From Balanoglossus misakiensis (lineage: Eukaryota > Animalia > Hemichordata), in assembly GCA_040954595.2 (NCBI GenBank), contig CM082590.2, forward strand, positions 1,178,001 to 1,242,000: 64,000 bases of DNA, written 5' to 3'. Position numbers and translations under genes: made by a program. A model generated the notes under the pieces. The model was not told the DNA's origin. It saw nothing but the letters and a program-made list of their open reading frames with translations, and searched no databases. Below are positions 11,356-37,164 of the stretch, piece after piece (the first letter of the stretch is position 1; every line of letters begins with the position of its first letter).

Positions 11356-12031
11356 TTCCAAAGATCGCTGGCGGTGCTGACAAGGATTTGAAGTAACTGG
11401 TCGTACGGTCTTCTGTGCAAAAAACGTCCGTAGGAAGCGTAAAATTGGGAAAAAATCAAGGACCGACTTGACTAGTATGTGTCTACCTGAACGCCCTCTA
11501 GCGACCTTCTCCTGGAAATGAGGAACCAATTTAAAATGTTTTGTGACGTCAAAACTGTACGAACTTGAAGTTGTCTCAAGATAACCTGACCTACCACCTA
11601 ACTCTAATCTTTTCATTTCTAATTCCATCCGTTGTAGTTCTAATCTTTCTTCTCTCCCCTTCTCTTCAAGTTGCATTTGAAGTTCAATTCTCTTAAGTTC
11701 TAACTGGGTTTCAAATTTTTTAAGTTCTATTTCTTTAGACTCGGAAACGTAACATTTTAGAGCAGTCTCATCAAACGCATCCAAATCAACCAAATATTTC
11801 GCAACCTTGTATTGTATCTCTAATTTTCTCATAGACCTTTTAACAGGGACCTTTAGAAACTGTGCTAATATGATAAGCTGTTCTTTTCTGAGAGAATCAA
11901 ACACATCTTGATCGGGCTCCTTCATAAACGCTTCAGGGCTAAAGTCTGGCATGTCGGAAAACCGCTGAGTTCACACAAAGCCGAAACAAATATATTGGAC
12001 AATTTTCAAACGAGTACACAAATTCAAATAT

Positions 12032-13915: not shown

Positions 13916-16031
13916 GTGATTGTTTAAGCTCTCTAGTTGTGTTCACCCAAGTTCAACTATGGCCGAAAAGGACACACAGGAATCAGTGCCAACCGCTGAT
14001 GATCAAGGTAAGCCTGATGAATCAGATCAAATTGTAACAAAAGCAGAGATTCATGAAACAAATGTAGAAATGGATGAAAATGTGTACACATTACGCAGAT
14101 CAGAACGAGTACCCAAGCTTACTGAGAAAGCTAGGGAAGGTAAGTTAATTGATTTGGAGAAGCAGTTCTGGCGTACCCACAATCGGTTGTTGTCATTTGT
14201 GAACAACCCTGACATATTCGACAAAGAGTCTGTGGAAAACATATATACTATTTTGAAAGAAATAGAGCGCGAGCGCATTGTTTTGATTGAAATTCATGAT
14301 CAGATATGCGCCGTGTCGGACACCCCCTTAGAGGATGTATTGAAAGCCGTCGATCGTTTGAATTTGCGTGTGGATAGTGCCATCAATTATGCACAGCGAC
14401 TGATTGCGCGAGCCGATGCTCATAGCTCAGTTTCATTCGGATCCGTGCCTTCACATTACACAAAGTCGAGCTCTAGGTCATCCAAACGATCCAGCTCTTC
14501 CACTATGTCATCAGTACGGAGAAACGCTGCTGTCAGGGCAGCTGCCCTACAGGCGGAAATCGAGGCAAAACATGAAGAGACTGCACATGAAGAGGAATTG
14601 GAACACTTAGAGGCAGAAGAAAAAAGACGACAAGCGGCGGCTGTGGCAGAAGAGAGAAGACGCCAAGAATTAAGAAGCTGAGGCAGAAATACGTCGTAGG
14701 AAAAGAGTGTTAGAAAGACAGAAACTAGTAGGAGAACTACATGTGGAGAAAGCAAAGATAGCTGCTTGTGAAAGAGAAGAACTTCTCGACAACCTGCCAT
14801 TAGCGAAGACTATGTTTCCACCAGTGACGAGCGAGTTGCCTATCATGAAGACCGAACCGATCAGCCAGTCGACACCAGCTGCTCATATTCCCACGCGTAC
14901 TGTAAAAACGGAACCAGTCGTCCCGCCGACTACCAAGCCCTCGACGTCGCAACCGAAACCACAAGATTATACACTACGTGCAACAGCAAATGAATATCGC
15001 CCATCGGAGAACAGAGAAGACCTCAAGGTATTGACAGAAGCCTTGGCAACATCTGTTTCCTTGAGCAGACTTGCTACACCCGAACCACCAATATTCATGG
15101 GAGACCCACTTTCTTATCCAGATTGGATATCGTCTTTCATCACCTTAGTTGAATCACGAGGGGTCCCACCAATCGAAAGAATCCATCACCTGAAGAAGTA
15201 TTTGGGTGGTCCTGCTAAGGAAGCAGTCGCCGGATGCTTCTTACTCCGAAGTGAAGGAGCATACGAAGAGGCAAGAACCATTCTGGAAGAACGATACGGT
15301 AACTCTTTTGCCGTTACAGAGGCCTTTAGAGAAAAAATCGAAAGATGGCCGAGAATCTCCGGCAAAGACGGGAAGGCATTGCGAAAGTTCGCAGACTTCT
15401 TGAAACAATGCCGGATAGCGATGAAGGATATCCCAGACCTCGCAGTGCTGAACGATATCCACGAAAATAGGAAAATGCTCCAGAAGTTACCGGACTGGCT
15501 CGTAAAGAGATGGAGCAGGATCGTAGCAAAACTAAAAAAGGCTACGAACGCATACCCCCCATTCGAAAGATTTGTCTGCTTCATGATGGAGGAGGCAGAT
15601 ATTGCATGTGACTCATTGACCTCAACCGGCTCGCTGAGGTCACCAACGGACAGAGACCCGGAGAAAACTCCGACCAGCACCAGGAGGCGCAACCCAGGTG
15701 CACGTACGCTCTCGACCACAGCAAAACCAGGGGCGGTAAACCAGTCGTGTGTTTTCTGCAAAAAGACTGGGCACGCTATACAGGAATGTTATAGCTTCGC
15801 TTCCACGCCTATGTCCGATAGACAGGAATTTGTTCGAAAGGGCGGTTACTGCTTCGGATGTCTTAACACGGGGCACATCTCAAAGAACTGCAAATCCCGT
15901 GGCGTTTGCAGGAAATGCAGTAGGAAACATCCCACCAGTCTACATTCCGACGAAAAAATTGTCCAACAGAGGACATTTAATTCGTCCATGAACGAAACCA
16001 TGAGCACTGTTCAGTCTCCAGAAAAGAAACC

Positions 16032-16655
16032 TATGGAAAGCCGTTGGGGACCCCCGACAACTTCTCTCAATACATGGGTAAAGTCCATAGACAAATGATA
16101 GGAACGCATATGCTGAAAATATGACGCACATTGGGTGCCGACGCCGTAATCTAAAATGCCGGTAACAACCAAATTTTTGCCGACACCTTTACTCAATCTA
16201 CCGGCGCCGACAAAATCACAACCGGTGATTTGATGAGTTCTCGCATCGGCGTTTCTACAGAGTTGTCGCATCGGCGTTTCTACAGAGTTGTCGCATCGGC
16301 GTTTCAGCTAGAGAGTTGTCGCATCGGCGTTTCTGGAGAGTTTTGTCGCATCCACGTTTCTGGAGAGTTTTGTCGCACCGGCATTTCTACACATGCGCAT
16401 CGGCGTTTCAGCTAGAGTTTCCTCGCATCCGCGTTTCTGGAGAGTTTTGTCGCACCGGCATTCTACACATGCGCATTGGCGTTTCAGCTAAAGAGTTTTC
16501 TCGCATCGGCGTTTCTGGAGAGTTTTGTCGCACCGGCATTCTACACATGCGCATTGGCGTTTCAGCTAAAGAGTTTTCTCGCATCGGCGTTTCTGGAGAG
16601 TTTTGTCGCACCGGCATTCTACACATGCGCATTGGCGTTTCAGCTAAAGAGTTGT
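16032..16655 (+). repeat. Left TIR: ~200-bp core plus subterminal tandem array (~22-25-bp units, 78-bp higher-order unit)
   Basis: Reverse complement of ~35583-36245; only two substitutions noticed in the core; unit resembles GAGTTGTCGCATCGGCGTTTC. Confidence 0.92.
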
Positions 16656-16956
16656 CGGCGATTTTGGACAGCGGCTTTTTCTTCTCGGTCTCCTCTTTAG
16701 TTAAGGTTTTGTAGTCAAAGAGTAAATCACAAGGCAAAATCTCGAGATGCTGAACTGCTGCTAGGTCTCCCATGCATTTGTTAGAACACTGAGCTAAAAG
16801 TCTTTCAACGTTATAGGCTTAGATATTTTAAATAAATTATTGTTATTAGCAAATTATAATTTTTACGTTTGTTATCATGTGGTCAACCGATGTTCGTACA
16901 GAGCATGCGCATAAGATCAACATGCTACTCCAAGGCAACTGTTGCTGATGAGAATT

Positions 16957-19093
16957 ATGGCTACTCTAGGTAAGTTTCATTATGAATTTTATGACGTTAC
17001 TTTACATGTTCTTTCTAAACATTGAAAGAAGGAAAGGCATTGATCAGATTTGAAGCTTTACTGTGTCTTAAGATTGCAACTATAGCCTGGTATCCATACC
17101 TAGTGTGCGAGTCTATCTATAAAACACACTGGGTATGGAGACCAGGCTAGCAACTATTATGTTCTCAGTTTATTTCAGTTTCTTGTTCAGCATTTAAACA
17201 TGATGAAATTCTCAGCTTTTAAAATTCAGCAATAATCAGATTAATTTTGTTGAAATTGAATTCCCATTTATTTCCCACTCAGTGTTAGATTGCTACAATG
17301 AATTATTATTATGTTGGTGAAGTCTGGCAAATTAACTGTTTACTGGCACTTAGCTATGCAAACTAGCATTAGAATGAATTGGGAAATAGCACAATAACTG
17401 GCCAATTCTTATGAAACAACAGCATTTACATGGATATATGAAACCACTATTTAATGCTTAGATAAAAAACAGAATGGTTCCTTGATGGGGTTGGCTCTTC
17501 AAAGCTGTAGAATAGGGGTACACCTAAAACCAGAAACCAAAATACTGCATTTAATGCAAACAGATAGATAATTTCCTTTTATGTTAGATTGCCAATTTTA
17601 CACAAGTCACTTGTGAATATTATTTTCTTACAGAGCAAAGGGAACTCATTAAGAAGTATTTCTCGTATGGTTATACACACAAATTAATTTATTATGTAAT
17701 GGTAAAACAACATGGATTCCGTTTGAGGTAAACAGCATTAAAAACATAATAACTTTACTTTTGAGTGGTAAACTTACATTATTTTATTATCTGTTACTTG
17801 GAAATTGTGTAATGACCAGTCTCTTCCTTTTATGTTATCCCTTTAGTGTACAACTCACTCTCACTTTATTTTGACTCTGTAGGTTTTCATACTTCAAGCG
17901 CAAATTCCTCCATCACCTTGGACTCTATCGAAAAGAGAGAAGAGCACAGTCATCTTTTGATGACATTGTTTCTGCTGTGCTTGTATGTTAAGCTCTTTAC
18001 CCTAACCTACATTTAATTAGTGACACCACTTCCCAAGTCTGACTTAATTGCACACATTCAGTATAACAAATTAAAATCAAATTCTGAACATCTTGCAGAA
18101 GAACTCCATTTTCCTGGTCACCCTTTTGTCATTTGGGCAGATATGCGAGGGACATTGTTGCTAGGAAATTAATTCATTTATGTCAGTTGTTTGTGTTCTA
18201 CCACTTGCAGGGATTAGAAGCAATTTCAAAAGTATTCGATTTATGTCACATTTTATTAACTATTTTTTTCAACTGTGAATGTCAGCTATTCTAATATTGA
18301 ATGTGTTCATTCATTTGTTCACACATCTATCCATCTATCCAACCATCCTTTCCTTTATTCATTTACAGACAGAACTGAATACAGGGTCTGGCTGCATTGT
18401 TGGAGCCAATGAAATGCTAGCTATCCTGAGAACTAAGCACCAATTGATGGTTAAAAGGTAAAAAAAAAATTTTTGTAATACTGGAATGATAAAAACAATA
18501 ATGCAAACATAAGTGATCATTGATATCATCAACAAGGGTCTTTTATTTGAAATGGCTGATTGATGTAAGGGAAATGCTATTTGAATAAGCTCCCTTGGCA
18601 AGAAAATAACAGGTGATGGACTTGTTTCCTAATTCTCCCTGCTAATCTAAAGTTGAAGTGCAAATGTCAAATCTATTTCACTCATTGAATAAAAACTTTG
18701 GCCCAGATTTATTACAAATCTCATTTCAATTAAATTGCAGATTATTCTTATTTTATTAAAATATGTAATAAATAGATTTCTTTTTTTGTAGGGAGACTGT
18801 ACGAAAACTTCTTAGGATCCTGGATCCAATAAACGTTCAACGACGCCTGCATCGCCGGTTAATACGGCGTGAGTACAGATGTAAAGGACCAAATTATGTA
18901 TGGCACATTGGTAAGCAAATTAACTGATTGTACAGTCTGAACCTGTCTAAACTGGACCTTCTGAACATGGACACCTGTCTTTACCAAACAAATTTTTCAG
19001 TCCCTTTGACACAGAACCACAAGTTAAAATAAACTCTATGAACTAATTACCTTTGCAAACAAAACAGTTCTTCGGTCCCTTTGTTGTCCACTA

Positions 19094-19132
<39 letters not shown>

Positions 19133-22100
19133 ATACATGCCTAAATATAGGGATAAACTGTGTTAACGCCATCTTGAAAATTTGCAGTGCATTATCGGTC
19201 AATTGAGTCCCAGTTGGGGGGGGGAGTAGCGTCTACAACCTATCCAATTTTCCTGCAGTTTTGTCAGATTTTCTTCAAGTAACGTTAGTAGTAGTAGTTA
19301 CATGAAGAAAATCTGACTAAACCGCTGGAAATGGATAGGTTGTAGACGCTACTCCCCCCAACCGGAACTCAATTGACCCATAATGCACTGCAAATTTTTA
19401 AGATGGCGTTAACAGTTTATCCCTACATTTAGGCATGTATGACATTGTGTTTTGATTTTTTTTTTTAGATGGGTATGATAAACTATCTCCATATGGATTT
19501 GCCATTCATGGTTGCATCGATGGGTAAGTGCTATCAACTTATCATCTATACAAACCTTTCTGAGGAATGCTGGAGACCCATTGTAACACCATTGGTTTTT
19601 TGAGAATCACAATATTGATGAAAGCTAAGATTAATGAAGCACATTTAGTAACAATTCTGTGGAAATATGTTTATGCAATGAAATTTACTTATTCCTTTTT
19701 TAATTTGAAAATTAAGAATAACTTTGTTTTCTATAGATTTTCGCGAAGGGTGTTGTGGTTGAAAGTTGGTGCATCAAACAATGATCCAAGCAAAGTTGCT
19801 TCCTATTTCATAGACACAGTTGAGAAGCTGAAAGGTAATAGACACATTCACTCAAGGTTGTTAAACATATCATTTTGACAAAATTTGTTTTATTGACATT
19901 TCTGAACTGGGTAAAGGCGATAAATTTAGCCAACCACTAATCAATGACAATTATCCATTGCATGCTCATATTAGTCTTGTACTCAATATTTCCTGTGGCA
20001 ACATTGAAATGATCTTCACATATCCAGGCTGTGTTGAAAAACATTGAAACTACATGTAGGCAGTAAAGCATTTGGAATGAAAATCTGTCTTAAAAATTAA
20101 ATCTAGTGTGTACAATTTTTTTTTTTTTTTTTTTTGGGGGGGGTTAACATTTTAACTGTAAGAGCTGCCAATGTCAATCCTAATTTGTTTGCAGGTTGCC
20201 CCAGGATCTTGCGAGCAGATCATGGCACAGAAACAGGAGTGATAATGACTGCTCAAGCCATGTTGAGGACAGATGGTGATGATGCTTTTGCTGACAACAG
20301 CTTTTGGTATGGTCCTTCAACTGCTAACCAGGTCAGTTATATGACAAATGACATCACAATTTTTCTTAGGAATACCTACGCTGTACCGTGTCATGAGATA
20401 AAAAGACTGTTAATACTACCCATTTTTCCACTACCTTGTTAAGATGACTATATGCTTGAGGAGACTATCCTCAAACCTCATAGACTCCCCATCTTCCCTA
20501 CTTCAGTCACCAATTCCATTGCTGCTGCATGCCTGAGCAAATTTTGTTCATATTTGGTGCAGTTTTTTGTTTCACAATATAATCCAAAAAAGAAACTTTT
20601 GGTATCGTTTTTCACATTTGTTTGTTCAGAGTGGTGACAGTAATTGTGTCGACCATTGTTTTCATTGTGATCTCTTCTTACAGCGTATTGAACGATGGTG
20701 GGGTGTGTTAAGAAGTAAAAGTGCAGATTGGTGGATTGACCATTTTAAGGTAAAGTATCATTTGGCTTGTACAAATGTGTTCTGCAAAACAAAATCAACT
20801 CAAACACAAAGATGGTTGTATAAGTGACAAAATTTGTATTCTCATAGAATGTGCCACAGCCCAAGATGCAATGTCATTAGTGGATGCAGTTGTGTGTAGG
20901 AATGAGAAAAATAACCAGTATAGCTCAAGTCAGTTCATATCATGATGTTGAATTGTCCTGCAGAGTTTTTAGGTCCCATTGGTATAGGCATATATACCAT
21001 GGGACCTTATGGGATGGGTTGCGTCTGTATGTATGTATGGATGGATGGATGGATGTATGGATGTATGGATGTATGGATGTATGGATGTATGTCTGTATGT
21101 CCGTCCACATCAAAAACTTGAAAACCGCTGCGCGTATCACCTCAATATTTGGTGTGTAGGTGCAGGCAGGGCTGTAGATGGGAGTTTGTCCAAACGAAGT
21201 TGCCAGGCCCAAAAATATGCAAATTAGCTTGTAAAATGTGAAATTTATCAAAACTCTGTAAGTCAACAATTACTGGCCAGATTGCTTTGAAAATTGGTAT
21301 GCATGTACCTTATGTCAACCTCACACCGACCTGTAACTGTTAAGTTGATATCATAGATGTTTTATTTTTTATGAATTTTTTAGTCTTTTTTATTAAATTT
21401 ATACCTTTACTTATACCTCTATGGTTAAGCTATGTCCACGTCTTATTGTGGAATTCTGGTCTGTGCAATAGTCCTGTACAGTGACTGTCTATTGGTCAGT
21501 GAGCACAATGTGGCCAAAATAAAAGGCAAATTTTTGGGCTCACCTGTAACACCTGCTTAGCACATTAATTATGTACATATCTAATTCCGGGCTAACTAAT
21601 AGGGCTAGAGGTTCTTGTGGGACATGGACCAGTATAGGGTCAAAATTTCTTGCCCAAATTTTGGGTGACCTCAGGTGACTTTTGACCAACTTTCCTATAT
21701 CTCGGCATCCAGAGCAGGTACAGACTTGGCGTTTGGAGGGTTGGGACTAAAATTGAAAAGCCAAAATTTGGGGTCACCTGTGACACCTGCATATCTCATT
21801 AATTATGTGCATACCTAATTCCAGGCTAACCTATAAGGCTATAGGTTTGGTTTTTATTGAACATGGACCAGTATAAGGTCAAAATTTCTTGCCCAAAGTT
21901 TACATGACCTCAGGTGACCTTTGACCTACTTTCCTATATCTCGGCATCCAGAGCAGGTACAGACTTGGCGTTTGGAGGGTTGGGACTAAGATTGAAAAGC
22001 CAAAATTGGGGGTCACCTGTGAAACCTGCATATCTCATCAATTATGTGCATACCTAATTCCAGGCTAACCAATAGGGCTATAGGTTTGGTTTTTGTTGAA

Positions 22101-23784
22101 CATGGACCAGTATAGGGTCAAAATTTCTTGCCCAAATTTTGCATGTCCTCAGGTGACCTTTGACCTACTTTTCCATATCTTGGCATCCAGAGCAGATATG
22201 CTTATTGCTATGTTGCTATGTGCTATGTCCTCAAATGGGACCACAGTGTCCTTGACGCTATTTTTATACATGAGGACTAGGCTTTCCAAACATTTTTTTT
22301 CTTGGCCATGGCCTTGCAGGCAGTTTATACACAAGTACAAGACCACATTCACTGACACATTTTACTGTAGCATTACAGGAAATTCACCACTATCATTTTT
22401 TTATCCCCTAGGATTTGGTATCAATGAGTCATTTGCAGTTAGGTGACCCGGTCAACATGTGAGTTGATACACTTTATGTTTTGTTTCAAGTAATGAAAGA
22501 AATTCCATTATTCAATCTGTCAATGTTTGCACAGAGCAGAGAAGAAACAGACACAGACAGGATGGTAGAGACATAGACAGGAGATCAAATATTGCAGTTC
22601 GTTTGAAATCCATAGATCTGCTGGAAATCATATTTTTAACTGGATGAATTTCCATAAACTTGTAACATTATGCTATTTGTTAAGTATGATAAAATGCACA
22701 TATTATTCCCAAGCATCTTGAAATCAATTTGCATTTTTTCTTTCAGAATGAGTATGCAGTTTTGTTATTTTTCTGTCATGCAAAGGGAACTGGATGAGGT
22801 AGTTGAGAGGTGGAACCACCACAGAATAAGGCGACAAAATAAAGGAGATTCTGTATCAGGCATTCCAGAAATTCTCTATACCTGTCCTGAGTTACTAGGT
22901 ACTTTTTTTATTGCAACAAAATAAACAAACCAACAAAGATTCATTAAAATTGCAGAAATGCTACCTAATCTGGACCCTGTGACTGAATGTAGATCACAAG
23001 TCATGAGGGTATTTCACTCATTAGGTCAACATAAGGCTTATCCATGAAGTAAATGACATGCAGTGTTTAAAGCATAAATCATGAACATTGGAAAGTTTCC
23101 TCAACAAAAATCTCAAGATTACATAACATCTGCAGAGAATGATAGAAAAATAACATTTCAATCACTTCATTGCTTAAGGTAAATAAAATAAAATAACTTA
23201 ATATACATCTGGCACCAAGAACAATAGATACTCCAATATAAACAAAAAAGAAAGATGGCTGCTCACTGTGTACTGTGTTTCAGCTGATCGGTTATGGTTG
23301 ATTGTACCAGCGTTTTGAAAGCCAAATAATATGCAACACAAGAACTAACTGAGATGTAAGATGTACAATAATAATTTTATTATGAAAATACCACAAAGTA
23401 TATATTTGGACATTAGCATAGTGCATCGCCCTCCGCTACGCATCAGGCGATACGTGGCGCTAATGTCCTTGAGCATACTTTGCAGTATTTTCGTAATACC
23501 CTCATAGTATTTAACCCATACATAAATTCTTATTTGAACAAACATATTTTGTTATTTCAGACCGCCCTAATTGTCGGAACTACATACATTCAGTCAACGC
23601 TGGCTCTCAAACTTTCTTGCTATGCAAGTCACAGTGTAACTTTGATAATGGTTGCAATGAAGATTTCGCAGTTGTGGCACGGAACATATGCCAAATGAAT
23701 GGATGGAATCATGAACCCACTACAGCATTTGCAGCAAAAGAACTCTACTTGCACTTGACACCTTGCCTTGAAGAACTTTTCTAA
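16957..23784 (+). CDS. IS3EU-type DDE transposase, 12 exons, 397 aa
   Basis: Exons 16957-16969, 17634-17727, 17883-17982, 18369-18457, 18792-18910, 19469-19523, 19737-19834, 20195-20331, 20684-20749, 22412-22458, 22747-22898, 23561-23784; all GT-AG and phase-consistent, 1194 nt open; motifs GPNYVWHIDGYDKL, IHGCIDGFSR, RADHGTE, STANQRIERWW, WNHHRIR. Confidence 0.9.
17083..17149. mobile_element. 67-bp hairpin MITE in transposase intron 1
   Basis: TAGCCTGGTATCCATACC..GGTATGGAGACCAGGCTA with flanking direct repeat GCAACTA. Confidence 0.75.
19096..19129. repeat. (TA)n microsatellite
   Basis: Pure TA run. Confidence 0.95.
19128..19445. mobile_element. Fold-back (palindromic) MITE in transposase intron 5
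   Basis: ~150-bp imperfect inverted arms ATGTCATACATGCCTAAAT..ATTTAGGCATGTATGACAT around a short loop near 19285-19296. Confidence 0.8.
20969..22265 (+). mobile_element. Helentron-associated (HINE/DINE-1-like) non-autonomous element with ~240-bp internal tandem units, in transposase intron 9
   Basis: 5' hairpin AGGTCCCATTGG..CCATGGGACCT, (GTAT/GGAT)n microsatellite, units recurring at ~21625, 21865, 22104, 3' AATGGGACC + short hairpin GTGTCCTTGACGC + T tract. Confidence 0.7.
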
Positions 23785-23825
23785 ACTACACAACTAAAGA
23801 GAACAATACAACAGCTAATACTTTA

Positions 23826-24025
23826 GAGGCCGTTCAGTTTTCATGGCTTGGGGCGAGTTTGTGTCATCTGTTTTCAAAAACAGGCAGACCCCCCCCCCCC
23901 CATTCCCTTTACACGGGACCAAAAAATGATGACCCCCCTTTTGAATTTCCAAATTTAAGTGACACCCCCCTTGATTTTGCCGACTCCCCCTACCTACCTC
24001 CCGCCGTAAAAACTGAATGGTCCCC
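23826..24025. mobile_element. ~200-bp MITE (Harbinger-like) between the convergent genes
   Basis: Imperfect TIR GAGGCCGTTCAGTTTT / AAAAACTGAATGGTCCCC with TA flanks. Confidence 0.55.
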
Positions 24026-25501
24026 TAGTAAAAAAAATGTTCACAAGTACAGTTCAAAACAGCCCACACAGAAGAACATCATCATAGTTTGTTAGGGTGT
24101 CATCCAGGTCACCACTAATCTGTTGAACAAATAAAAAAGTGATTTCATGCATTAAAAAACATTGTTTATCATATTCATGTGTATGTACTGACATTTTGTG
24201 ATGCGAAATAAAACTTGGTTATCAGAATAGCTGTACTATGTGAACATTTGGATTCTGTTTCACGAGACTGAAGAATGTTGTGCATTTTTGGACAACTCGA
24301 TTTTCAGTATAAAACTGCTAAAAAGACAGTTGATCAATCTCTCAAAATTGGCAAACACCGAAATATGCAAATATCATCAAAAAAATTTAAAATTATTAAA
24401 TTACCTCTTTCACTAGCATCATTTCTGGTAGATATTCTACTAAAAGGAAGTCGGCCTCAGCTGTGGCATGGTATTCATGCTGACACTGAAAATCAATACA
24501 GTTGGGAGGATCGAAACATTGCAGAAAAAATCTGCAAGGAAGATCTTCTGAATCAACTGTACCGCAAATCCAATCAAAGACATCCTGCAAAGCAAATAGA
24601 TTCTTTTATGTTTACAATTATAATGCTAGAATGTGATGATTAATCCAAACCTTGGTTTCTTTATTTTGGTATGACTGCAGTTACACTCAGAAATGCCTTA
24701 CATTGTAAGGCTGCAACGGACTGTATTTGAACAGTGAACATGAAACACACAATTTACACTTGATGGCCCATATCTTGACTTACTTTGAGTGTATCTAGGT
24801 TTCTGAATGGCCTTTCCAGGACCTCATCGTTCACCATGATGCAGATTTGTCTTTTCCTTTCGTTAATCAAGGGCAATCTTATATTTTCGGCTCTGGCCTG
24901 TGCTGCCTGTAAAGAAATAAACACATTGAGTGTCATAACCTGAGCAGACAATTCACTGACTAACCGGTTCCTAGGGAAGAGATTGCCTTGCCTAACGTGA
25001 AATAGGTATGTGGATGAGAAAGTACAAAACAAACATTAAGTAGAATGCACCTCTGAGCTTTAAATTTTTAGACATTGGACCTAAAAATTAACAATTTATC
25101 AAAAACTATCCTATAAATGTAAAAATGAAGAATTTATCAAAAACTACAAAGACAATCAACACGTTTCAATCCAGTATTAACATCATTGCCCAAACTGTCA
25201 CTTTGGTGTAGGAGTATAACCAATCCAGTCAAATGTATGACTCAGAATCAAAATTCGACTAAACTTACATCTTTCCTTTGCAATTTCCTTTGAGCTTGTT
25301 TCTCTCTTTCCTGTAACGTTAATATTGATACCATTTAATACCTTAGACTAATCAATATCCCCCAGGGGCGGCCTAAACATCACATGTGAAAGCCCCATTT
25401 GTTTAAGAGTCATTGCATAATCTTTCAACACCTTTGCAAATACCAGTCAGAGTTATTTTCCATCATATCTGCTCTGACTGTCCCCATATTTCCTCATGCA
25501 G

Positions 25502-25663
25502 CAGTAAAACCTGTCTAATCTTGAAACCTATCTATATTGAACACATGTTCCTGTCCCTTTGACATGGAACCACATGTTAAAAGAACCCCTATAAACCAGA
25601 CACCTTTGCAAATGGAATAATTTCTTCAGTCACTTTGGTGTTCAGTTTCGACAGGTTTTACTG
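25502..25663. mobile_element. Tc1/pogo-like MITE (a truncated relative starts at ~18933)
   Basis: TIR CAGTAAAACCTGTC..GACAGGTTTTACTG followed by TA. Confidence 0.65.
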
Positions 25664-25773
25664 TAGCAGAATAGACATTTTGCCAATAAATACAATTGGT
25701 ATTGACTAGAAGTGCCTGATCATTCGAATATTTATTCGGAGAACCTGCTCCATCATTTATAGTAGTTAATTAA

Positions 25774-26376
25774 AGCCACAGTATTTCTCGTAGGGGCAAA
25801 ATTTTGTTTGAAACGGCATCTATAATTTCTAAAAGTAGATGATAATTGATACTGAATCGAACAGTCATCATCCCCAGCTCTGCTGATAAACTCATACAAT
25901 TTACAATATAACGAGTGAAGAATGACTTTCTGTCCGGACAGAAAGTCACGTGAGTCAGGCTAATGTTGACACACGTGACTAGTGCGCATGCGCACTCAAA
26001 TGTGAATCTATGCGGAAGAGGTTTGGTCGCCCCAAATCAAGCGACTCAGCGAAGAAATGCGCACTAATTCGGCGAAATTTTGGGAAGATAACTTTATGGG
26101 AGAAATCAGTCGATGGAACCAGATCAAATCCGAAAATGGTCTGACCATCAAAATGTCAAAGTGGCACGTTTGCTGATCGACATGTACACCATTTCCGTTG
26201 TAAACAAACCCGCGCACCATTTCAAGTGTTACGGGCAATATTTTCGGCTTGCATGTAGCTACAATTGCCCAAACCTTTCTTACATCTTCATTATATAGTA
26301 TTCCATGATGGATGTACTGGAAAAATGGGCTTTTTTCGATGATGAAAAATGGATGCACACGAGAAATACTGGGGCT
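25774..26376. mobile_element. Kolobok-type non-autonomous element (603 bp)
   Basis: TTAA on both sides; TIR AGCC(A/C)CAGTATTTCTCGT. Confidence 0.8.
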
Positions 26377-26903
26377 TTAATCATGTCTAACCTGTTCTGA
26401 ATTCAATGCCTGTTCAGCACTACATTCTTTCATGGATTCCTCACATGAAGCTGCCACCTCCTCCACCACTGTTACGTCAACAGAATTTTCAACCGCAATC
26501 ACTTCTACATCTTCATTGACACCATCACAGGACACAGGATCACAGGACACAGGATCACAGGACACTAACTTTTCATTGTCAGTACCCTATAACAGAAAAT
26601 AAAAAAATGAAATATCTATCTGGCTGTAATTATGATTTTGTAAAATGTTGCTGTTTTGTGCTTAAACTATATTTTTTGTTCCCCATAAATTTTGTTGAAA
26701 TGTCAAGATTTCAATTCATCGCCAGTAGATACTGTATGCCACACTGTATTACAAACCATGACATCACTGGCAGACTAAATTTCACATGTTAAAATATTCA
26801 TGTCATTATACCTTGACCATTTCTTGTTCTTGTTCAGGTTCCTCTTGCTGCTCGAACTCTTTGTCTTGCAGTTGCAGCTTCTTTTGAACAAAGGATGCTT
26901 TCA

Positions 26904-28725
26904 CAGTCAGATCGCACGGCATTCATTAACATATGCAAATGAAGAAAGTACTTCAAACCATGTAGCCGTTAGAGTGGGCCCCGCTGAAGGGTCGCGAAAT
27001 AGGCCATTTTTTTACTCGATATTATAGAGCTGTTTTCAGGCGATGTGGATTATTTTAAGACAAAACCGTGGATTCACTTGAAGGTAGGTATACTGGATTG
27101 TTACTGAATGATTTTTTGGCAACTTCTGTCGAGTAGTTTCTTTGTAATCACGAAATTTCTGACGACTGTGAAAAAACACATAGCGTTGACATCCTCTCGA
27201 TTATTTTTAAGCTGACCGTTACACATGGATTTTACCACGAAATTTCAAACTTTTATCAAAATATAGACATCAAACTCCCTCTCTTTGAGTTTTCATTCAC
27301 TTCCAAGCTTTGATAGTGACGATATGACCAGTTCAATTTTGTTTACCTTTCAACCTGTGAGCGCCATTTTGTTTACTTTTCAACCCGTGAGCGCCACTTC
27401 TTCTGCAAAATGGCGGGAGAAGACAGCATGCATGTGTACGTATATACGCTGGCGCAGGCTTGATCCTGGGTTGTACCAGCTGCGTAGTTTTCCCTCCTCT
27501 CTCGTGCGAAGAAATTTTGATTGCTGATATGTAATCCCGAGTTTTACTAAACCCTAACAATTATTTTATGAAGGTTTGCCCGTCAAGGAAACTCACTTTT
27601 TTTAATTTTATTGTTCTTTCAGATTGATGAAGACTGATTTTTGTGGTGGTGGTGTTGCAGTTGACTGTTTTATTTTAGCTGTCTGAGTTGACAATTTATT
27701 CTGTATTTTGTTGTATTTTTAACTCTTTATCCTGTATTTTGTAGTAGTATTTTGAACACTGTTTAATAAATAAATTACTATTATTATTATTTATCGACCC
27801 AATGCAATGATGACAAATCGCTCGCCTTCAGACACAAATGTTGTATTTATTGCATATATCATCGGCGAATAAAGGGAAGTGGTTTCGAAGTTACACTTGG
27901 CATTTTCGAAAAGTCTACTTATATCCCACGATGCGGAGAAAAAAATATATACAAAATACGTCAGCTGAGCTCCTCACGAACGGTAAACCTGGCATTCTGT
28001 GCATGGGTAATCAAATATTTGTTTGTAGCCCAATGTAGGCGAACGGTGTGGAGCACCCGGGCGCGGCACTCGTGCGATTGATCGATGTTGTGTCGAAATC
28101 AGGCCAGTAATTAAGTTAAAACTTGGCTGATATGTTACCTTAGAGTGTTATACACTATCCAGTAACTTTTACTTGACAAGTGTCTTTTAGAAACTTTTCC
28201 CCACGATAAACGTGTCGTTTCACGAGCAACGCAACACTTCCGTATTTACAAGCCTAACATGGAGAGGTCAACGTAGGGCCTATACTTCCGGGTCATATCA
28301 TCGAACTACATCGATTATTTTTAAGCTGACCGTTACACAAGCATTTCGAGTTAATTTCTTTTCACGGATGTTGGGACCGATATTAGACCTATCTGTCACG
28401 AAAACTTGGTTAACTTCCGAGGTCGTCTTCAAATGATTTTTGGCACGTTTGTGGACGTCTCTTCCGAGGTCACCAACATACCACCGAAAACACGCTAAAA
28501 ACTACTACTATTACCGACAGATTCTCATAAAATTTACGTCTGCAGTGCAAAATAGGAATCACTTTCGAAATTTATCGAGCTAGCATGGTATTTTATTGTA
28601 CCACGGAGTGTAAAAATCAAGTTGAAAATCACCTTGAAAACTGGCCTATTGCCGTCTGTTTGAAAATTAACGGTCGCTGGCTTGACGAACTTTCATATGC
28701 AAATGAGCACCGTGCGATCTGACTG
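26904..28725. mobile_element. 1.8-kb non-autonomous TIR element with 4-bp TSD, superfamily uncertain
   Basis: Perfect 16-bp TIR CAGTCAGATCGCACGG; TTCA duplicated at 26900-26903 and 28726-28729; internal direct repeat at ~27198 and ~28311. Confidence 0.85.
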
Positions 28726-29009
28726 TTCAAAGAATGTTTTGCTGTGGAATACAAAAAAAAATACAGAATACAGAAATGCCCTGAAAATTGATAAGCACAT
28801 CAGCATAGCTCACATATGCATAAAGACACTGTTAATTATTTACTACTGTGTTTTAGTCCATACTAAAATCATTTCTCAATGTTGACTATACAAAGACCAG
28901 ATGTTCTCGTAGGAGGATCCTTAAACCTTTGGCAATGAAACTACAAACCATAGTTCTAACCTGGGACTACACATAACAAAAGGACAGATTTACTCTGGAA
29001 AATAGGTCA

Positions 29010-29369
29010 TTAAAGGGACAATGTCTCTCTCTTGCTGCCCCTTTTCCATTAATTATGTTTGATACAAGACACCGTTTATGTTATTATATGTGTGGATATA
29101 TAGTGAATCAACGTTCAACCACACACACCTTCCATTCGGCTTGAAGACATGAGTGAAAAAAAATCACCAAAATGAATAATATTCCTCTACCATTTTTTCA
29201 TTTGGGGCGAGTTTTTATTCTCATATCATCATACAAGTGAAATGGAAGTTGTGTGTGGTCGAATGTTGATTCGCTGTATGTCTACATGTAAAATAACACA
29301 AACAATATCTTGTATCAAACATAATTAATGTAAAAAAGCAGCAAGAAGCAGAGAGAGACTTTGCCTTAA
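29010..29369. mobile_element. Degenerate palindromic MITE
   Basis: Inverted arms, e.g. CATTAATTATGTTTGATACAAGA / TCTTGTATCAAACATAATTAATG; TTAA at both ends. Confidence 0.6.
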
Positions 29370-32300
29370 GGGGTCACTGATAGACAAGGCTGAAACTTTT
29401 TTAGTGCAACCTTTGAGTCAGATAATCAAGTTAATCAAGTATAATGCACCTGTGCACTTACACAATCAAAGTGGTGGAACTTGGAGGTAGCATTGTTGGA
29501 ATAAAAGTGCCCATACTTGGGCCATTGTCACATGACCAGACAGGTACCACTATCCTGCAATTTTGCAAATACATGTCTAAAATGGCATTTGTTGAATTTG
29601 TTATGTTCATGCCAGGCTTTGCATAATTGCATGATAGCATGAATATACCAACCATAAAGTCCACCATGCCAATGATACCCACTGGATAATGGGGTCTGCC
29701 CAGTCATGTGACAATGACAGAAATGGCGCTTTTCTTCCAACAAAACAAGTTCTGCCACTTCTATTTTTGTCTGTGTTTGTTTAAAAAGAAGCAAGTGAAT
29801 AATAAAAAACTACCATGACTTTTTAACCTGGATAATCCAACACAAAACGGGCACAAAGAAAAAAAACAACCTTTCAATTTATCCAGTTAAATACTTGACA
29901 CAACTTGTGACAATGTAAATAGACATATTTACTCACTCTGCCGAACTGCAAACATGAAGACTGGCAACTTGTCTGTCTTCGCCTTCATACTTTTGTATTT
30001 TGCCTTCAGGTCTTTTAATTGGAAATTCATTGGGTCCTTCATCCTTATGAACACTCCTATGTCATTCATCTCATAAGGTACAAAATCCACGTCGATGAAG
30101 TGTGCCGATACACTCTGGGCCCAGTGCATGGCATTTGAGCCACTGTCCACGGTAATGGCCACCTGACTTTTTCTGCCGACAGCTGATGGTAGTACTGCCC
30201 CCATTTTCTTTAGAACTCCTTTACTGTCTTTTATCAGTGGTGTAACATTTAACACCTGAATGAAAATGTTACAAAATAGGGTAAACATCAAAATTTTAAT
30301 AAATGTATGTAAAATGGCATGAATATAAACTTAAATTTTCATAAAATCAGGAAATAACTAACAAGGAAAAGACTTGTACATTGCATGGATATGAAGAAAA
30401 CATGTGTTATAACTCCTAGCAATTACGTATAATGCTTAAAGGCTGAACTGTACATAACCTTGGTCTATACTTTCCTGTGTATGTATACTCTACACTTCTA
30501 TTCTATTCCCTAAAGCATGATGAAATTACCAGTGTCTAGAATGTTTACCTTGTCTGTAAATTAGATGATGAGAAATTAAATACATGTACTGGGCAATTCA
30601 TCATGCTATTGGGTGTAGAATGGAAAGAAAACAAAAGTGTAGACAAAATACAAAAAGGTTAGTGGTGGGGGGGGGGGGGGGCTAAAAACTTCCCAAAATA
30701 CTTCAAGAAAGGCAGTTCTTATCTTTCTTCATGTATGTATCATTTGGATTGCAATTCCTACCTGTTGTTCTGGTGGCTTTGGAGCAGATCGCTTCAGTCT
30801 TTTTGATTTTACTTCAGCCTCTTTCATCTGAAACTGTTCGGCTAGTCGCCCAATGCTTCTTGACTCTCTTTCAAGGGATAAAAAAAACATTAAGTGTTAC
30901 TTAAATTGTTTGAACAGTTGCACTTTTTTCAATGAGTTGGATATTCCATAGGCATCAAGTGAGAAAGCAACTGTGCTGAAAAATACGAATTCTAGAAAAC
31001 AATTTTTGTGAATTATCCAAATTGACGAGTGCAAAATTTCCAAGGGAAAAAGTATCTTCCTACATTTACAGTACATTTCACATTTACCTTTGGTCAGGTC
31101 TTCTTTTCTCTTATACATCTGAAATGATATTAAAAGCATAACATAAAATAACTATCTGTTGTACCTCATCTCCTACTGGCAACACTGAACATTTCTACAT
31201 GCTTCCGCCAATAGAACAAACTATTAGTTGATACACCCAGTAGAATATAAATGCCATACAAGTTGTCAAAAGTGCTTTTATACACCAAGTATTCTGCTAG
31301 AAGACACAGTATGCATATGTTTAAAGGCTGTTGTTGACTTGAACTCTATTTTCTATGATAACAGCAATCGCATCATGTATTGACAATGAAATCCATGACT
31401 AGACTCAAACCAGAAACTAGCTGACACAACAGAGCTTTACACAATACAAAGCATAAAGAAGCATTGAAATCATCCATATTGCTTACATGTGATATATGGC
31501 TTATGACAGTCCAAATTTCATTGCGACGCCGTTTCACTCAGATCAATTGGTCATAGTGGAGTGGAAATGTGGTGGTTTATGAGAGTTCATACTGGCAGTT
31601 CAATCACATATAATTGACGGAGTTGGTGCCCATGACAGTATAAAGCAGTAGTTAATCAAATTTTGTCAACAGTACTACATGTACTTGGAAAATATTTACA
31701 GAACTATAAAATAAGCCAAGATACATTTCTCTCAAATCAGTGTTGCAATTGAGCATTTATATAATAAAATGATGAAGCAGTATTTGTCACAGACATATGT
31801 TGTAAGTAGCAAAAGAAACAGTTTAGGTATTTTGATAGGGTTCGATAACTCAGCTGCTAACATTTGCAAAGTGCCTATAGTGTAAGGGCCTGGAATTATC
31901 ATGACAATTTCAGAATCAAAGAGAAAAATACCGTCAAGGACAGTGTGGTCCCGTTTAAGGATTACGGAAGGAAAGGTTTTCACCAGAATACACACACACA
32001 GATCAACAGGCAAACACTGACTGGCCATTGACTGACTCATGAGCTGCCAGTGGCATGTGTACTGTGCACACACCAAATAGAACTGTCTCTTGACAGATGG
32101 GCTAAGTTACATAAACATGTAGACATTTTCTGTGTAAAAAAACTCATTAGGGGATTTCATCTAACTTGCAAAGAACAATGTTCAGGATATTTTTCTGCTT
32201 GAGATAAAAAAAATTGTGGTAAATGTATAAGACAAAATGTCATAAAATACAACAATTCAAATTTTACTTTGATTTGATCCCATTATAATTATAAAGGAGC

Positions 32301-32923
32301 ACATCCCGTTGACTCACAACTCAAATTTTACAGAAATCAATTGAAAACTTTCTGATATCAACTAATACATGGAAACCTAGAAAACATAATACAAAAATAC
32401 AAGATTTTCATTTTCACTATAATTTTGATATATCATAATAACAATCCCCAAAGGAAACTACATTTAGTAAATTGCAAAGCAATTGGATGGACAACCCGTT
32501 TCAGAGAAATTGATTTTTGTACCAAAAATGGAAAAAACAGCCACAAGAATACAAAATCTACACTTTCATTAAAGGGTCTGCAAATTTCAAAGCAATCAGG
32601 GTAGAGGCTTTTGAGAAATATTTTTTGACCAAGAATGTCCTAAATCATCCCAAAAATATACAATTGATTTCTTCCCCTTGATTTGAAAAACAAAATCAAG
32701 GAAACTACATCTGATGCACACCCTCAAATGAAATTTCTGATAAATACTATTACAGACGCAACCAATCCCATAAGGTTCCAATGGTATATATGCATATACA
32801 AAATGGGACCTGGTAAAACACATATCATCCCTCAAGAATTACAAATTGATTTCATCAAAATTCTTTCAGTCAAGATGGGTGCCAGAAACCAATACACCAT
32901 GTCCTGCCAAACAACACCTTTAT

Positions 32924-34210
32924 TTATATATCAAAGAATATTAGTGATGAGATTTGCCCCTGACTGACATCTGTGCCATTGCTCAGACCTTGCATACTGA
33001 AATTTTTAAATGTCACCCAGAAATCAGTACTTTTTAATGCTGTGATTCTTCGGCGAGAGATCCCACGTGACCCGAATGATGTTTCTTTATTTCCTCTGAT
33101 TTGACAGACAACTGAATAATCTACATTGGGTGGGATTTTAATCAGCTTACTGAAGACAACAGGAAAGGTAATCTGGGGGGAAGTGTTTGAGGCTTCTGTA
33201 TTGTACACAACAGCTTGTTGATGATTTAATATTGTGACATGAGCATGGACACTTTCATCTGTATTTCCAAACACATAAACACCTAGCAGTGAGACAGGAA
33301 CATCCACTGAAAAGGAAATCCTGTCACCCTCAAATTGGTTTCCTTTCCATGTGTTTGGATTTTTTTCATTGATGAAACGCCGCGCCACAATGGCATTATT
33401 TGGAACCACATTTCTTGTGATTACATCCACATAACCAGGAACAGGAAAATTGCATCCAGGATGTCGAACTGCTTTTAATATCTGGAAGACATCTTCATAA
33501 CACAAAATTTGTTCAGAAATTAGTCGATGAATACTTTCTTCACTTAACGACAAGAAACGGATGTGGGGAAGAAATGGCTCAAAACAAAAGGGGGCATCCA
33601 TATCATTGCCATTGACACCCTGAAGTTTCCTTTCCACCCATAAAAACAATGCATTCAAAAGTGTGTCTTCCTTTACCGAAAGCGTCTGACGCTGAATTAT
33701 TTTTACAACTATGCTTTCAGGAAGTTGAAGAAAATCTTCCAAAACTTGCTCAGAATTAAACAGTTTAACACCATTCTGATCAATTATTGACAGACAGTGT
33801 TCAAAAGTACTATCTAACTGGTATTTCTGACAAAATACAAGGTCTCTAATACTGCGGGAAGTTACAATGTTGGAAATTAAAAATGATTCACATTTCTCTT
33901 TTAAAGAATTTATCATGTAAAAGTTACATATCTCCACATAATCTTCAACATTTTCACTTGTAATATTTAACTTTTCAAAATAAAAATCATCAATGACATT
34001 TTGCATGAGTAAGGGATCAAAGTCAGAACAATCAATGGTGTTGTCGTTGGCCCATTCCGAATGCAAACGGGCGGCAAACACATCCGAAAAAAGACACAAC
34101 ACCAATGAATGGGCCCTTCTCGTCTGACCATCTCTGAAGCGAAGGATGACATCATTTGCTACAGTGTCTTGGTTTCTATATGAAGTTTGCAATTTTTGGG
34201 CCAGTAACAT
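32924..34210 (-). CDS. BTB-BACK-PHR protein (BTBD1/2/3/6-like architecture), single coding exon, 428 aa
   Basis: BTB (DVILRF..AHSLVLCLFSDVFAARL), BACK (FLQLPESIVVKII..E..L.NALFLW..IRF), PHR (RRF..W..DRISFSVD..LLGVYVFG..GQISSLIF); acceptor TTGCAG ends 5 nt before the ATG at 34210; no stop or frameshift. Confidence 0.88.
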   Translation of the reverse strand: MLLAQKLQTSYRNQDTVANDVILRFRDGQTRRAHSLVLCLFSDVFAARLHSEWANDNTIDCSDFDPLLMQNVIDDFYFEKLNITSENVEDYVEICNFYMINSLKEKCESFLISNIVTSRSIRDLVFCQKYQLDSTFEHCLSIIDQNGVKLFNSEQVLEDFLQLPESIVVKIIQRQTLSVKEDTLLNALFLWVERKLQGVNGNDMDAPFCFEPFLPHIRFLSLSEESIHRLISEQILCYEDVFQILKAVRHPGCNFPVPGYVDVITRNVVPNNAIVARRFINEKNPNTWKGNQFEGDRISFSVDVPVSLLGVYVFGNTDESVHAHVTILNHQQAVVYNTEASNTSPQITFPVVFSKLIKIPPNVDYSVVCQIRGNKETSFGSRGISRRRITALKSTDFWVTFKNFSMQGLSNGTDVSQGQISSLIFFDI

Positions 34211-35582
34211 GATGTCTGCAAGTGTAACAAAGGTATAGCACCAGTATTGTATCAGTTTAGTTGTATATCGACACAAACTGAATAGCTCAGGGCCTAACTG
34301 TATCCTAATTATATTGGAAAATATCTGAATTGTTAGATTGTTCATTTTATCAGTTTATTACCATATTGGTAGGAAATTCTAATTGTTCTCAAAAATTTCA
34401 CAGACAAGTATTACATATACAACAGGCTTATTGCATCAAAACTAGAAAAACAAATAAACATGGAAACAAATTGGGTTATATTTGTCCCAGACAGAAATCT
34501 ATGAACGGTTATGAAATCTGGCGACTTCTTGATGAAGTTTCTTTTAATTTAATTTCTGTAGTAAACTTAACTGTCAAAAGTTGTTTATTTTATCATACCT
34601 TATTCAAATGTGAAATATCATAGTCGAAATTGGGGCATTATAGTGAAAAAATGTAAAATTACAGTTTATAAATTGGTTGGTAAATCGGAATAAATCATGT
34701 AAATTTACATGAATGTCATTAGAAAGAAAAGTCAAAGTTCAAATAAAGAGTTCAATCAAATTCATGGAGATTCCATGACAGTGTATATCATCTGTTACAT
34801 TTCTTTTTGTTTTTTTCTAAATTATGTTGAACTCGCTTTTTTTTCAGCTTTTCAACATATTCCAGTGCATTATTATGACACAGTTGCGTTTTGACTGTTG
34901 CTGAAAAAGGTCTGCAGACTTGTTCCTAAATTTACCACTTTAGGTGCAAACATTATACATGAAAATCACATCTAATTGAAATGCAGGTGTCCATAGAAAC
35001 CAACCAATAATGTAATCAACCCATGTTTTTTCAGCTGTGTCACTATCAGTTTCACTATCTGTAGGCTCATAAAAAAAACAGCTATGGACTCCCAACAGGA
35101 ACCCAACTTGGGTTAACATTTGAACAGTAAAAAATGACATATGCCTCCCTGAACTGACTATTTTCTGTTCCCAAACTAAATTCCTGAACAAAATTTCTTG
35201 TCCGTTTACAAATTGCAGCCACTTTTCCAAGGAGTACCAGTAAGATTTCCACACAGCCAGCCAGCGAACTCTGACCCTCACCCACAATGGACATTCAGTT
35301 AACTTCGTGCGAGCGCCATATTAGCATATCAATAGCAATCATTTCAAGTTGAGAACTTTCTCCGTGGATGATCGGCTGAAATACGTAAACTAACCAGAGA
35401 ATTTTTCACGAAAAGAGTTTAGGAAACAGTAATTTAAAAAAGATAACACAGACGAGACAGTGGATTCGCAGGAAACTAGCGGAAAAGACTTGACAAACGA
35501 ACATAACTTTTCTTACCTTCACTACAACTTCGCTCCACAAGTTCTGTTTGCAGTGGTGACTGCGCATGCTCAGAAAATCAGA

Positions 35583-36245
35583 GAAAACGCCGATGCGAGA
35601 AAACTCTTTAGCTGAAACGCCAATGCGCATGTGTAGAATGCCGGCGCGACAAAACTCTCCAGAAACGCCGATGCGAGAAAACTCTAGCTGAAACGCCGAT
35701 GCGCATGTGTAGAAATGCCGGTGCGACAAAACTCTCCAGAAACGCAGATGCGAGAAAACTCTAGCTGAAACGCCAATGCGCATGTGTAGAATGCCGGTGC
35801 GACAAAACTCTCCAGAAACGCGGATGCGAGAAAACTCTAGCTGAAACGCCGATGCGCATGTGCAGAAATGCCGGTGCGACAAAACTCTCCAGAAACGCGG
35901 ATGCGACAAAACTCTCCAGAAACGCCGATGCGACAACTCTCTAGCTGAAACGCCGATGCGACAACTCTCCAGAAACGCCGATGCGACAACTCTCCAGAAA
36001 CGCCGATGCGACAACTCTGTAGAAACGCCGATGCGAGAACTCATCAAATCACCGGTTGTGATTTTGTCGGCGCCGGTAGATTGAGTAAAGGTGTCGGCAA
36101 AAATTTGGTTGTTACCGGCATTTTAGATTATGGCGTCGGCACCCAATGTGCGTCATATTTTCAGCATATGCGTTCCTATCACTTGTCTATGGACTTTACC
36201 CATGTATTGAGAGAAGTTGTCGGGGGTCCCCAACGGCTTTCCATA
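35583..36245 (-). repeat. Right TIR with subterminal tandem array
   Basis: Inverted copy of 16032-16655. Confidence 0.92.
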
Positions 36246-37164
36246 GAAACCACACCCGAAACGAAGAAAGCGGACTGCTATGGTGTGACCTGCCCGCGAG
36301 GAAAGTCTATTTCGTCGATGATCGTTCTAGTGTGGATTTCTGGATACGAAGAACCGAACAGAGAGATTCTAGTGTACGCGCTGTTGGACACACAGTCAGA
36401 CACTACTTTCGTGCTGGATCATGTCGCTGAACAGCTACATACAGCATCTGAGCCAGCAAACCTTCGTATGACAACCATGACCACGAGCAACAAGGTTGTT
36501 GCCTGTCACAAATATCGCAAACTCAGAGTTCGCGGATTTGACTGTGACAAAATAGTTCCGTTGCCCACTACGTATTCGCTTGATTACATACCAGTGGAAA
36601 AATCGCACATACCGACTCGTGATATGGCCAATGGGTGGCCTCATCTTAGAGAAATCGCTACTCGTATTCATCCTCAACAGAAATGTGAAGTTGGTCTGTT
36701 GATAGGTTATGATTGTCCCCAAGCCCTAGCACCTCGTAGCTGTGTCACAGGCAGTGGAAATCAGCCATTCGCAGTAGAGACAGACTTAGGATGGAGCATC
36801 GTCGGACATCTTACACATCGAGATGAAAGGGAAGACGTCTTCAGTTTTACCCATAGAGTACTTACAAAGGTGATACCAGACGGTCTACAACCAGGTGTAG
36901 ACAGTCAGCAGAGACTTCGTATGAAAGAGTCTCATTCGTCGGCAGTTCGTTATGCCTTTAAGACTTCAGCCAACGAGCAAGTTCTCAGCCCTTTGGACGT
37001 GGTGAGAATTCTCGAATCGGACTTCAACGAACAAAAGGTTGAAGAAACCGCCATGTCTCAGGACGACATTCGATTTTTGAAGATCATGGAAAATGGTATT
37101 TCGAAAGAACCAGATGGATTCTATACAATGCCACTTCCATTCAGAGAAGATAGACCAGCACTCC

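Follow-up and report, generated by a model that had tools for sequence, protein, structure and literature searches.

Positions 16032-36245 of the window analysed here, a 64,000-nucleotide stretch of contig CM082590.2 from the hemichordate Balanoglossus misakiensis, are occupied by a recently inserted transposon, which its termini, target-site duplication and transposase sequence place in IS3EU. The element contains an intact DDE transposase gene on the plus strand and two further genes on the minus strand. One of these encodes a BTB-BACK-PHR protein, whereas the other, called gene 2 below, has multiple exons and a C-terminal domain that may be UBX-like. We lean slightly towards the explanation that the element is one copy of a multi-copy IS3EU family, and that the extra genes are the family's own accessory genes, predicted to encode adaptors of the ubiquitin system that would help control the transposase or nearby chromatin.

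Borders and transposase of the element

The borders of the element and its insertion site are defined by six features:

16032-36245: IS3EU element of 20,214 bp with TATGG..CCATA ends
16026-16031, plus strand: left target-site duplication GAAACC, inside a BEL/Pao gag open reading frame (DUF1759)
16032-16653, plus strand: left terminal inverted repeat, a 250-bp core (TATGG...) with 27-bp and 78-bp subterminal repeats
35585-36245, minus strand: right terminal inverted repeat with 77-bp subterminal repeats and the last bases CCATA
36246-36251, plus strand: right target-site duplication GAAACC
44116-44127, minus strand: empty site with a single GAAACC in the inverted sister arm

GAAACC precedes TATGG at 16032 and follows CCATA at 36245; the chance expectation for a 6-bp match is 2.4e-4. 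The two ends of the element have two mismatches over the first 250 bp, and beyond this core, 27-bp and 77/78-bp subterminal repeats occupy about 400 bp and bring the inverted region to about 620 bp. The BEL/Pao gag frame (DUF1759, E 1.7e-11) is disrupted by the element, and the same gag sequence is present without it in the sister arm. After removal of the element, the joined flanks match the sister arm at 44421-43831 in 591 of 600 bases and contain one GAAACC. The insertion is young, because the arms differ at only 4 of 911 bases beside the site. These observations confirm 16032-36245 as a real, recent IS3EU insertion, with both borders and the empty site as proposed in the first-pass annotation of this DNA.

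The window is mostly one large inverted duplication (1-39600 versus 39800-55900), the arms of which are about 99.3-99.5% identical and are built of nested Gypsy, BEL/Pao, and other repeats. The IS3EU element and a long interspersed nuclear element (LINE) are inserted in the left arm only, and a 293-bp triplication (44737-45621) is found in the right arm only. An origin of the sister arm as a long-read fold-back artefact was rejected, as the arms differ by whole insertions in addition to the base differences given above. The arms may be two haplotypes joined head to head, and the reading of the empty site is the same either way.

IS3EU is defined by TA..TA ends and usually 6-bp duplications, and has been merged with GingerRoot (PMC10045372). 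The present element has TA..TA termini with terminal inverted repeats and a 6-bp target-site duplication, and further shares with IS3EU/GingerRoot elements an IS3-like DDE core and a convergent second gene. Its transposase gene is organized as follows:

16957-23784, plus strand: IS3EU DDE transposase gene, 12 exons, 397 aa, no internal stop; exons 16957-16969, 17634-17727, 17883-17982, 18369-18457, 18792-18910, 19469-19523, 19737-19834, 20195-20331, 20684-20749, 22412-22458, 22747-22898, 23561-23784

All 11 introns are of the GT-AG type. The exon model was built from DNA alone, and the 13-nt first exon is its least certain part. The predicted catalytic residues are the aspartates of WHIDG and RADHG and the glutamate of NQRIE, and 39 residues separate the last two. 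The spliced transposase aligns by tblastn with 14 of 24 fetched loci, including L008 (transposase residues 7-264, 33% identity) and L009 (residues 48-321, 32% identity, E 1e-39). The transposase reading frames of all four such loci that were scanned match Pfam rva_4 above the cut-off, and one transposase exon of the window matches it under the cut-off (E 0.0011). The transposase core shares 65 of 114 positions with IS3EU-4_CGi by hand count, using the Repbase IS3EU cores as printed in the supplement of PMC10045372. By-eye comparison with Repbase cores places it in the GYDKL subgroup, like IS3EU-1_DR, IS3EU-4_CGi, and IS3EU-2_SK. The intact transposase and the assignment to IS3EU, both proposed earlier, hold on this evidence.

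Four prokaryote loci considered as transposase relatives did not align with the transposase, and two 17-bp matches to the end repeat did not extend; all were taken as chance. Comparison of the transposase with viral contigs gave one weak 18-residue match in one search and none in another. Just inside each end of the element, at 16903 and 35561, GCATGCGCA-type palindromic words, which we take to be NRF1-like, each precede a short stretch that resembles an exon and has a good donor. The GCATGCGCA sites are candidate promoters of the transposase gene and of the minus-strand genes. A promoter-like exon near 35570-35518 could be common to gene 2 and the BTB exon.

The two minus-strand genes

The minus strand of the element carries two genes:

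32924-34210, minus strand: BTB-BACK-PHR coding exon, intronless, 428 aa from its ATG (an in-frame ATG at 34345 would give 473 aa)
24054-31118, minus strand: gene 2, 9 exons, convergent with the transposase gene, about 388 aa when whole, damaged in this copy; exons 31118-31088, 30867/30865-30762, 30255-29937, exon 4 split into 28741-28726 and 26899-26812, 26586-26392, 25310-25269, 24906-24784, 24584-24405, 24119-24054

The open reading frame 32924-34354 contains, in this order, BTB (E 1.1e-15), BACK (E 5.3e-7), and PHR (E 1.5e-19) domains, all over the Pfam cut-off, as expected from its first description as an intact BTB-BACK-PHR frame. The 428-aa protein is the likelier product, because the ATG at 34210 is located 5 nt behind a splice acceptor and a Saccoglossus relative starts at the same point. 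That relative, XP_006820798.1 (32% identity over 90%), is the closer of two proteins found at E 1e-5 or better among 5128 candidates; the other is a distant kelch-BTB protein. Among solved structures, the BTB-BACK part is best matched by a poxvirus BTB-Kelch protein (E 8e-10), and the PHR part matches the solved PHR domain of BTBD2 (E 6.5e-9). The transposon protein has the same three domains in the same order as the Cullin-3 adaptors BTBD1/2/3/6, from which it differs in being strongly diverged, intronless, and located within a transposon; its Cullin-3 binding is a prediction. At the position of what we take to be the Cullin-3 phi-x-E loop motif, W-A-N is aligned to F-I-D of the top structure match, which serves as a lead only.

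The stop codon of gene 2 lies 270 bp from that of the transposase gene, in the opposite orientation. A two-protein layout with an oppositely oriented second gene is known from IS3EU (PMC10853768, PMC12730594). The protein encoded by gene 2 can be divided into a basic N-terminal helix, an unnamed ubiquitin-fold-like domain, an acidic linker, a UBX-like domain, and a conserved acidic-hydrophobic tail. The last 20 residues, encoded around 24057-24090, are conserved in all three available sequences and consist of an acidic stretch followed by TN[FY]D[ED]VL[FL]. The tail resembles what we assume to be a short linear binding motif such as LIR/AIM (LC3-interacting region/Atg8-interacting motif).

A HMMER search with exon 3 of gene 2 returned three matches among 1.84 billion proteins, one of which is credible. 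This is the 432-aa protein XP_070548833.1 (P0003) of Ptychodera flava, to which gene 2 is matched end to end, first methionine and last residue included. A search with the Ptychodera protein identified one further relative among 4656 candidates, the partial protein XP_077866879.1 of Saccoglossus, and relatives of gene 2 were seen only in these two genera. P0004 and P0005 were rejected as relatives because they are repetitive bacterial-type proteins. A word-based search with exon 3 among longer proteins found none in 60 candidates, and comparison of P0003 with metagenome contigs none in 328 stretches. Identity to the two relatives is about 55% in the N-terminal domain and 48-50% over the C-terminal exons, and tblastn over the acidic linker gave no match to them. 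This pattern suggests long-term constraint on both domains and speaks for gene 2 as a family gene.

The N-terminal domain of gene 2 has a score of 0.94 to an unnamed family of molluscs, chordates, and basidiomycetes in the ESM Atlas. In predicted structure it is similar to RA, PB1, and FERM-F1 domains and to a portion of a chordate cluster, 59% of which is HECT-bearing (TM score 0.61), and it looks like an unnamed ubiquitin-fold domain. A HECT domain was not found by scanning the full-length relative P0003, which ends at the C-terminus of gene 2, and selected exons of the window. For the C-terminal domain, UBX is the top lead by the language-model features of the ESM Atlas (0.85), and the Atlas model is matched mostly to UBX rows, at TM scores of 0.55-0.65, none of which reaches the naming bar. 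The domain carries an RPF..DTL.DVFDW pattern behind the weak Pfam UBX match of P0003 (E 0.013, 16.1 bits, below the 21-bit cut-off); the two window exons and the protein P0006 do not match Pfam UBX. AlphaFold models of the N- and C-terminal domains (pLDDT, the predicted local distance difference test, of 44 and 50, respectively) are too poor to confirm either fold. In fold searches, no match of the domain models reached a Z of 5 or an E below 0.001, and sequence and profile searches of solved structures gave nothing credible for gene 2. The designation of the C-terminal domain as UBX-like is thus a lead only.

The first-pass annotation had proposed that the element carries a module that tags and extracts proteins. 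In one version, the BTB protein would ubiquitylate and the UBX domain would recruit p97/VCP to strip the post-integration transpososome, as ClpX does on Mu. A beta-grasp domain after a long helix, as in UBX p97 cofactors (FAF1, p47, UBXD7, ASPL), may also be present in gene 2, the helix being placed ahead of the domain as in FAF1-type cofactors, and seven of ten structure rows align to a UBX part (TM score 0.55-0.63). UBA, UAS, and SEP domains were not found in gene 2 by Pfam. UBX domains contact p97 via an R...FPR touch-turn (PMC5389986). This motif is absent from all three C-domain sequences, which have a conserved C-x5-C-x4-C-x-H, a possible zinc site, at the FPR position; the PP dipeptide found there is present in this copy alone. 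Direct p97 recruitment by the canonical route is therefore unlikely from the sequence, and stripping of the transpososome by p97 is more doubtful still. The tagging half of the proposal keeps its BTB-BACK-PHR protein, whereas the extraction half is weakened.

Gene 2 is real and has multiple exons, as first described; in this copy it is probably non-functional, because exon 4 is interrupted and a base is missing in exon 2. A 1826-bp insertion lies 12-16 bases inside exon 4. Both public DNA runs discussed below, X1 and X2, carry one extra base at 30848 in exon 2. Without this base, splicing to the first acceptor runs into a stop, and an intact frame is kept only via an AG two bases on, which drops an SQEAL stretch common to gene 2 and the Ptychodera protein. 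The missing base could be an assembly error in a G run.

Copies in public DNA runs and the origin of the cargo

The element is represented in three public DNA runs, all from one sample, which is perhaps the source of the assembly itself. Contig depth is present in 30 of 30 bins for both X1 and X2, and the contigs together cover all three genes; the long pieces shown for these runs have 2-15 base differences from the window. The last exons of the transposase gene and gene 2 are joined in one X2 contig (23304-24324), and one X1 contig (2957 bp) contains the BTB exon together with 1.4 kb in the direction of gene 2. In each run, the end repeat continues into other flanks in three contigs, one of which is common to both runs. 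Neither X1 nor X2 showed the left junction of the window copy, a gap that proves nothing. Whatever the relation of the sample to the assembly, the run contigs represent copies other than that of the window. All three genes are represented in these contigs, and the end repeat is found there beside other flanks, so that the cargo is probably common to the whole family.

Two X1 versions of the end repeat are diverged from 16031-16141 (3 and 8 differences), which points to sibling subfamilies. Towards its 5' end (17131-18468), the transposase gene has about two-thirds of the contig depth measured for its 3' part, in X1 as well as in X2, possibly owing to internal-deletion copies, contig depth being a weak measure. 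A copy number from depth (470-746 for pieces of the element versus 38-50 for the two diverged-end contigs in X1, hinting at 10-20 copies) was not used; the ratio in X2 is quite different.

The same contigs bear on the idea that both extra genes are ordinary host genes trapped once between two IS3EU ends in a single copy. Their relatives are annotated as host genes in RefSeq. However, contigs of other copies hold both genes without the insertions of this copy and bridge the transposase gene and gene 2, which itself occupies the partner position next to the transposase stop. Single trapping is largely refuted by the presence of both genes in other copies, and we regard it as very improbable.

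A less improbable alternative, although still one that we doubt, is that gene 2 is the element's own partner gene and the BTB-BACK-PHR gene a captured passenger, an intronless copy from an expanded host family that is of no help to transposition. The coding exon is indeed intronless, and the protein has only one close relative among the candidates searched, at 32% identity. In GingerRoot, host gene fragments without known use are common, being present in 22 of 77 elements (PMC6839031), and in some invertebrates tandem duplication has enlarged the set of BTBD6-like genes (PMC7736800). The captured GingerRoot pieces are all fragments, whereas the BTB frame is whole, with all three domains. Furthermore, its base composition equals that of the rest of the element (0.375 versus 0.373), no inverted repeats of its own were found around it, and the 2957-bp X1 contig covers it at a depth like that of other unique parts.

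The element contains four nested features without assigned strand:

19128-19445: self-inverted 318-bp element, similar to a miniature inverted-repeat transposable element, in transposase intron 5, adjoining an (AT)n run
20966-22260: 1295-bp repeat insertion in transposase intron 9, skipped by X1 and X2 contigs, with related copies elsewhere in the window
25770-26376: 607-bp insertion in gene 2 intron 5 with 23-bp inverted ends and a TTAA duplication, skipped by run contigs
26900-28725: 1826-bp insertion, including one TTCA duplication, inside gene 2 exon 4, with 36-bp imperfect inverted ends, skipped by an X2 contig

The last three insertions, about 3.7 kb in total, have no counterpart in contigs of the public runs, and two of them carry their own inverted ends and 4-bp duplications. 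Since other copies skip them, the family unit is about 16.5 kb. The element was initially called giant at 20.2 kb, which is its true span here and exceeds the family size by the nested insertions. In contigs of X1 and X2, a 319-bp stretch (34638-34956) is replaced by 16 other bases.

Elsewhere in the window, the LINE of the left arm (6688-11506, minus strand) has a (TATC)n tail and a target duplication of about 13 bp, and its ORF1, endonuclease, and reverse transcriptase frames are consecutive in one frame, separated by single stops. A Gypsy-type gag reading frame with a SCAN domain and a zinc knuckle is located at 3253-4644.

Predicted role of the cargo within IS3EU

The carriage of extra genes by IS3EU elements is not new. 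Fungal families carry a convergent alpha-kinase gene and TET/JBP as a third gene, and Styx is an IS3EU derivative with four coding sequences (PMC12730594, PMC10853768). Fungal TET-positive IS3EU elements and Styx resemble the present element in their TAYGG..CCRTA ends and in having a third gene beside the transposase and an opposed partner. In the fungal elements, the partner gene encodes an alpha-kinase and the additional gene a TET/JBP dioxygenase, whereas here a ubiquitin-fold adaptor and a Cullin-3-type adaptor are predicted. Compared with Selaginella GingerRoot, the element is larger (about 16.5 kb versus 3.9-12.9 kb), has longer repeats of about 620 bp, and contains three genes (PMC6839031). 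A convergent alpha-kinase gene is also present beside an IS3EU-type transposase in five of the fetched loci (L003, L004, L006, L007, and L017, three of them near-identical). These loci are metagenome contigs, the base composition and introns of which look animal-like. L006 and L017 have a common unnamed N-terminal domain ahead of the kinase (58% identity); hhalign of the N-terminal domain of gene 2 with those of the kinase partners gave a probability of 0.2%, with only two sequences a side.

A BTB-BACK-PHR/UBX-like cargo was not found in the literature on IS3EU, GingerRoot, transposon ligases, and giant transposons, which was covered mostly by titles and the starts of abstracts, Repbase Reports and most subscription papers lying outside. 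The passages of PMC4455052, PMC6431247, and PMC7736800 at hand do not describe the combination either. Relatives may be present among the Repbase second proteins, which include two Saccoglossus IS3EU families, and in the supplements of PMC12730594 and PMC6839031, as the comparison was made without these. Within this scope, the combination remains as undescribed as the first-pass annotation held it to be, although the presence of additional genes as such is established.

We propose that the transposase, bound to the terminal and subterminal repeats, cuts the element out and inserts it elsewhere by a 6-bp staggered cut; these cut-and-paste steps are almost certain from established DDE chemistry. 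Gene 2 is likely to be the family's version of the usual convergent IS3EU partner gene, with a UBX-like end where its relatives have a kinase, and the BTB gene, with nearly the same assurance, would travel with most copies. The BTB-BACK-PHR protein would recruit host Cullin-3 and supply the ubiquitin-ligase role as a separate protein. Because BTB-BACK-PHR proteins such as Btbd6 are Cul3 adaptors (bioRxiv 575910), this is the simplest working model for the source of the ligase, and by this analogy we hold it tentatively, at somewhat less than an even chance. The present copy could still move with its own transposase and the gene 2 product from sister copies.

Several observations weigh against the explanation that the genes are the family's own accessory genes. 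The runs come from a single sample, and none of their contigs spans all three genes. Relatives of gene 2 or of the BTB protein were found in none of the 24 fetched loci, and the Saccoglossus relatives of the two proteins are located on separate short contigs of 6.6 and 22 kb. From 40 of the 351 differences between window and runs, 30 outside the nested repeats and flanks were tested; eight are coding, and six of these change an amino acid, a measure of drift in a single copy and not of selection on the family. The GingerRoot captures and host BTBD6-like expansions, the sub-threshold Pfam UBX score, the missing FPR motif, and the damage to gene 2 count on the same side.

The target of the predicted ligase would be the element's own transposase or transpososome, or a host silencing factor. 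We give the former a narrow preference, because from fungi to animals the position of the partner gene is constant and its enzyme module varies. If the target were instead a host repressor, the BTB adaptor would direct a piRNA or chromatin factor to degradation, and gene 2 would compete for a host ubiquitin-fold site. The basic, presumably nuclear localization signal-like N-terminus of gene 2 is in keeping with such an anti-silencing module, and the poxvirus BTB-Kelch match offers a parallel from another genetic parasite that has an adaptor of this type. A precedent is provided by the TET/JBP genes of fungal IS3EU, which have been proposed to counter methylation (PMC12730594). The fixed position of the partner gene across kingdoms fits a constant, element-encoded target at least equally, and we consider the anti-silencing role improbable, though less so than p97-mediated stripping.

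Returning to the transposase as the favoured target, a more speculative and rather unlikely extension is that the partner genes form a modular kit for protein modification, in which a single unnamed ubiquitin-fold domain serves as the base and docks on the transposase. The present lineage would have dropped the enzyme and would hijack Cullin-3 via the BTB-BACK-PHR protein, with the zinc-loop UBX variant as a second docking module. If this is true, a eukaryotic cut-and-paste transposon encodes machinery for the timed turnover of its transpososome. If lineages have independently filled the partner slot, with a kinase or, here, with a Cullin-3 adaptor and a UBX-like protein, the superfamily needs a protein-modification step. 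The conserved cysteine/histidine insertion would be the hallmark of a so far undescribed UBX-like fold variant. The family is young, its transposase is intact, and it offers a direct test case for the role of the partner gene.

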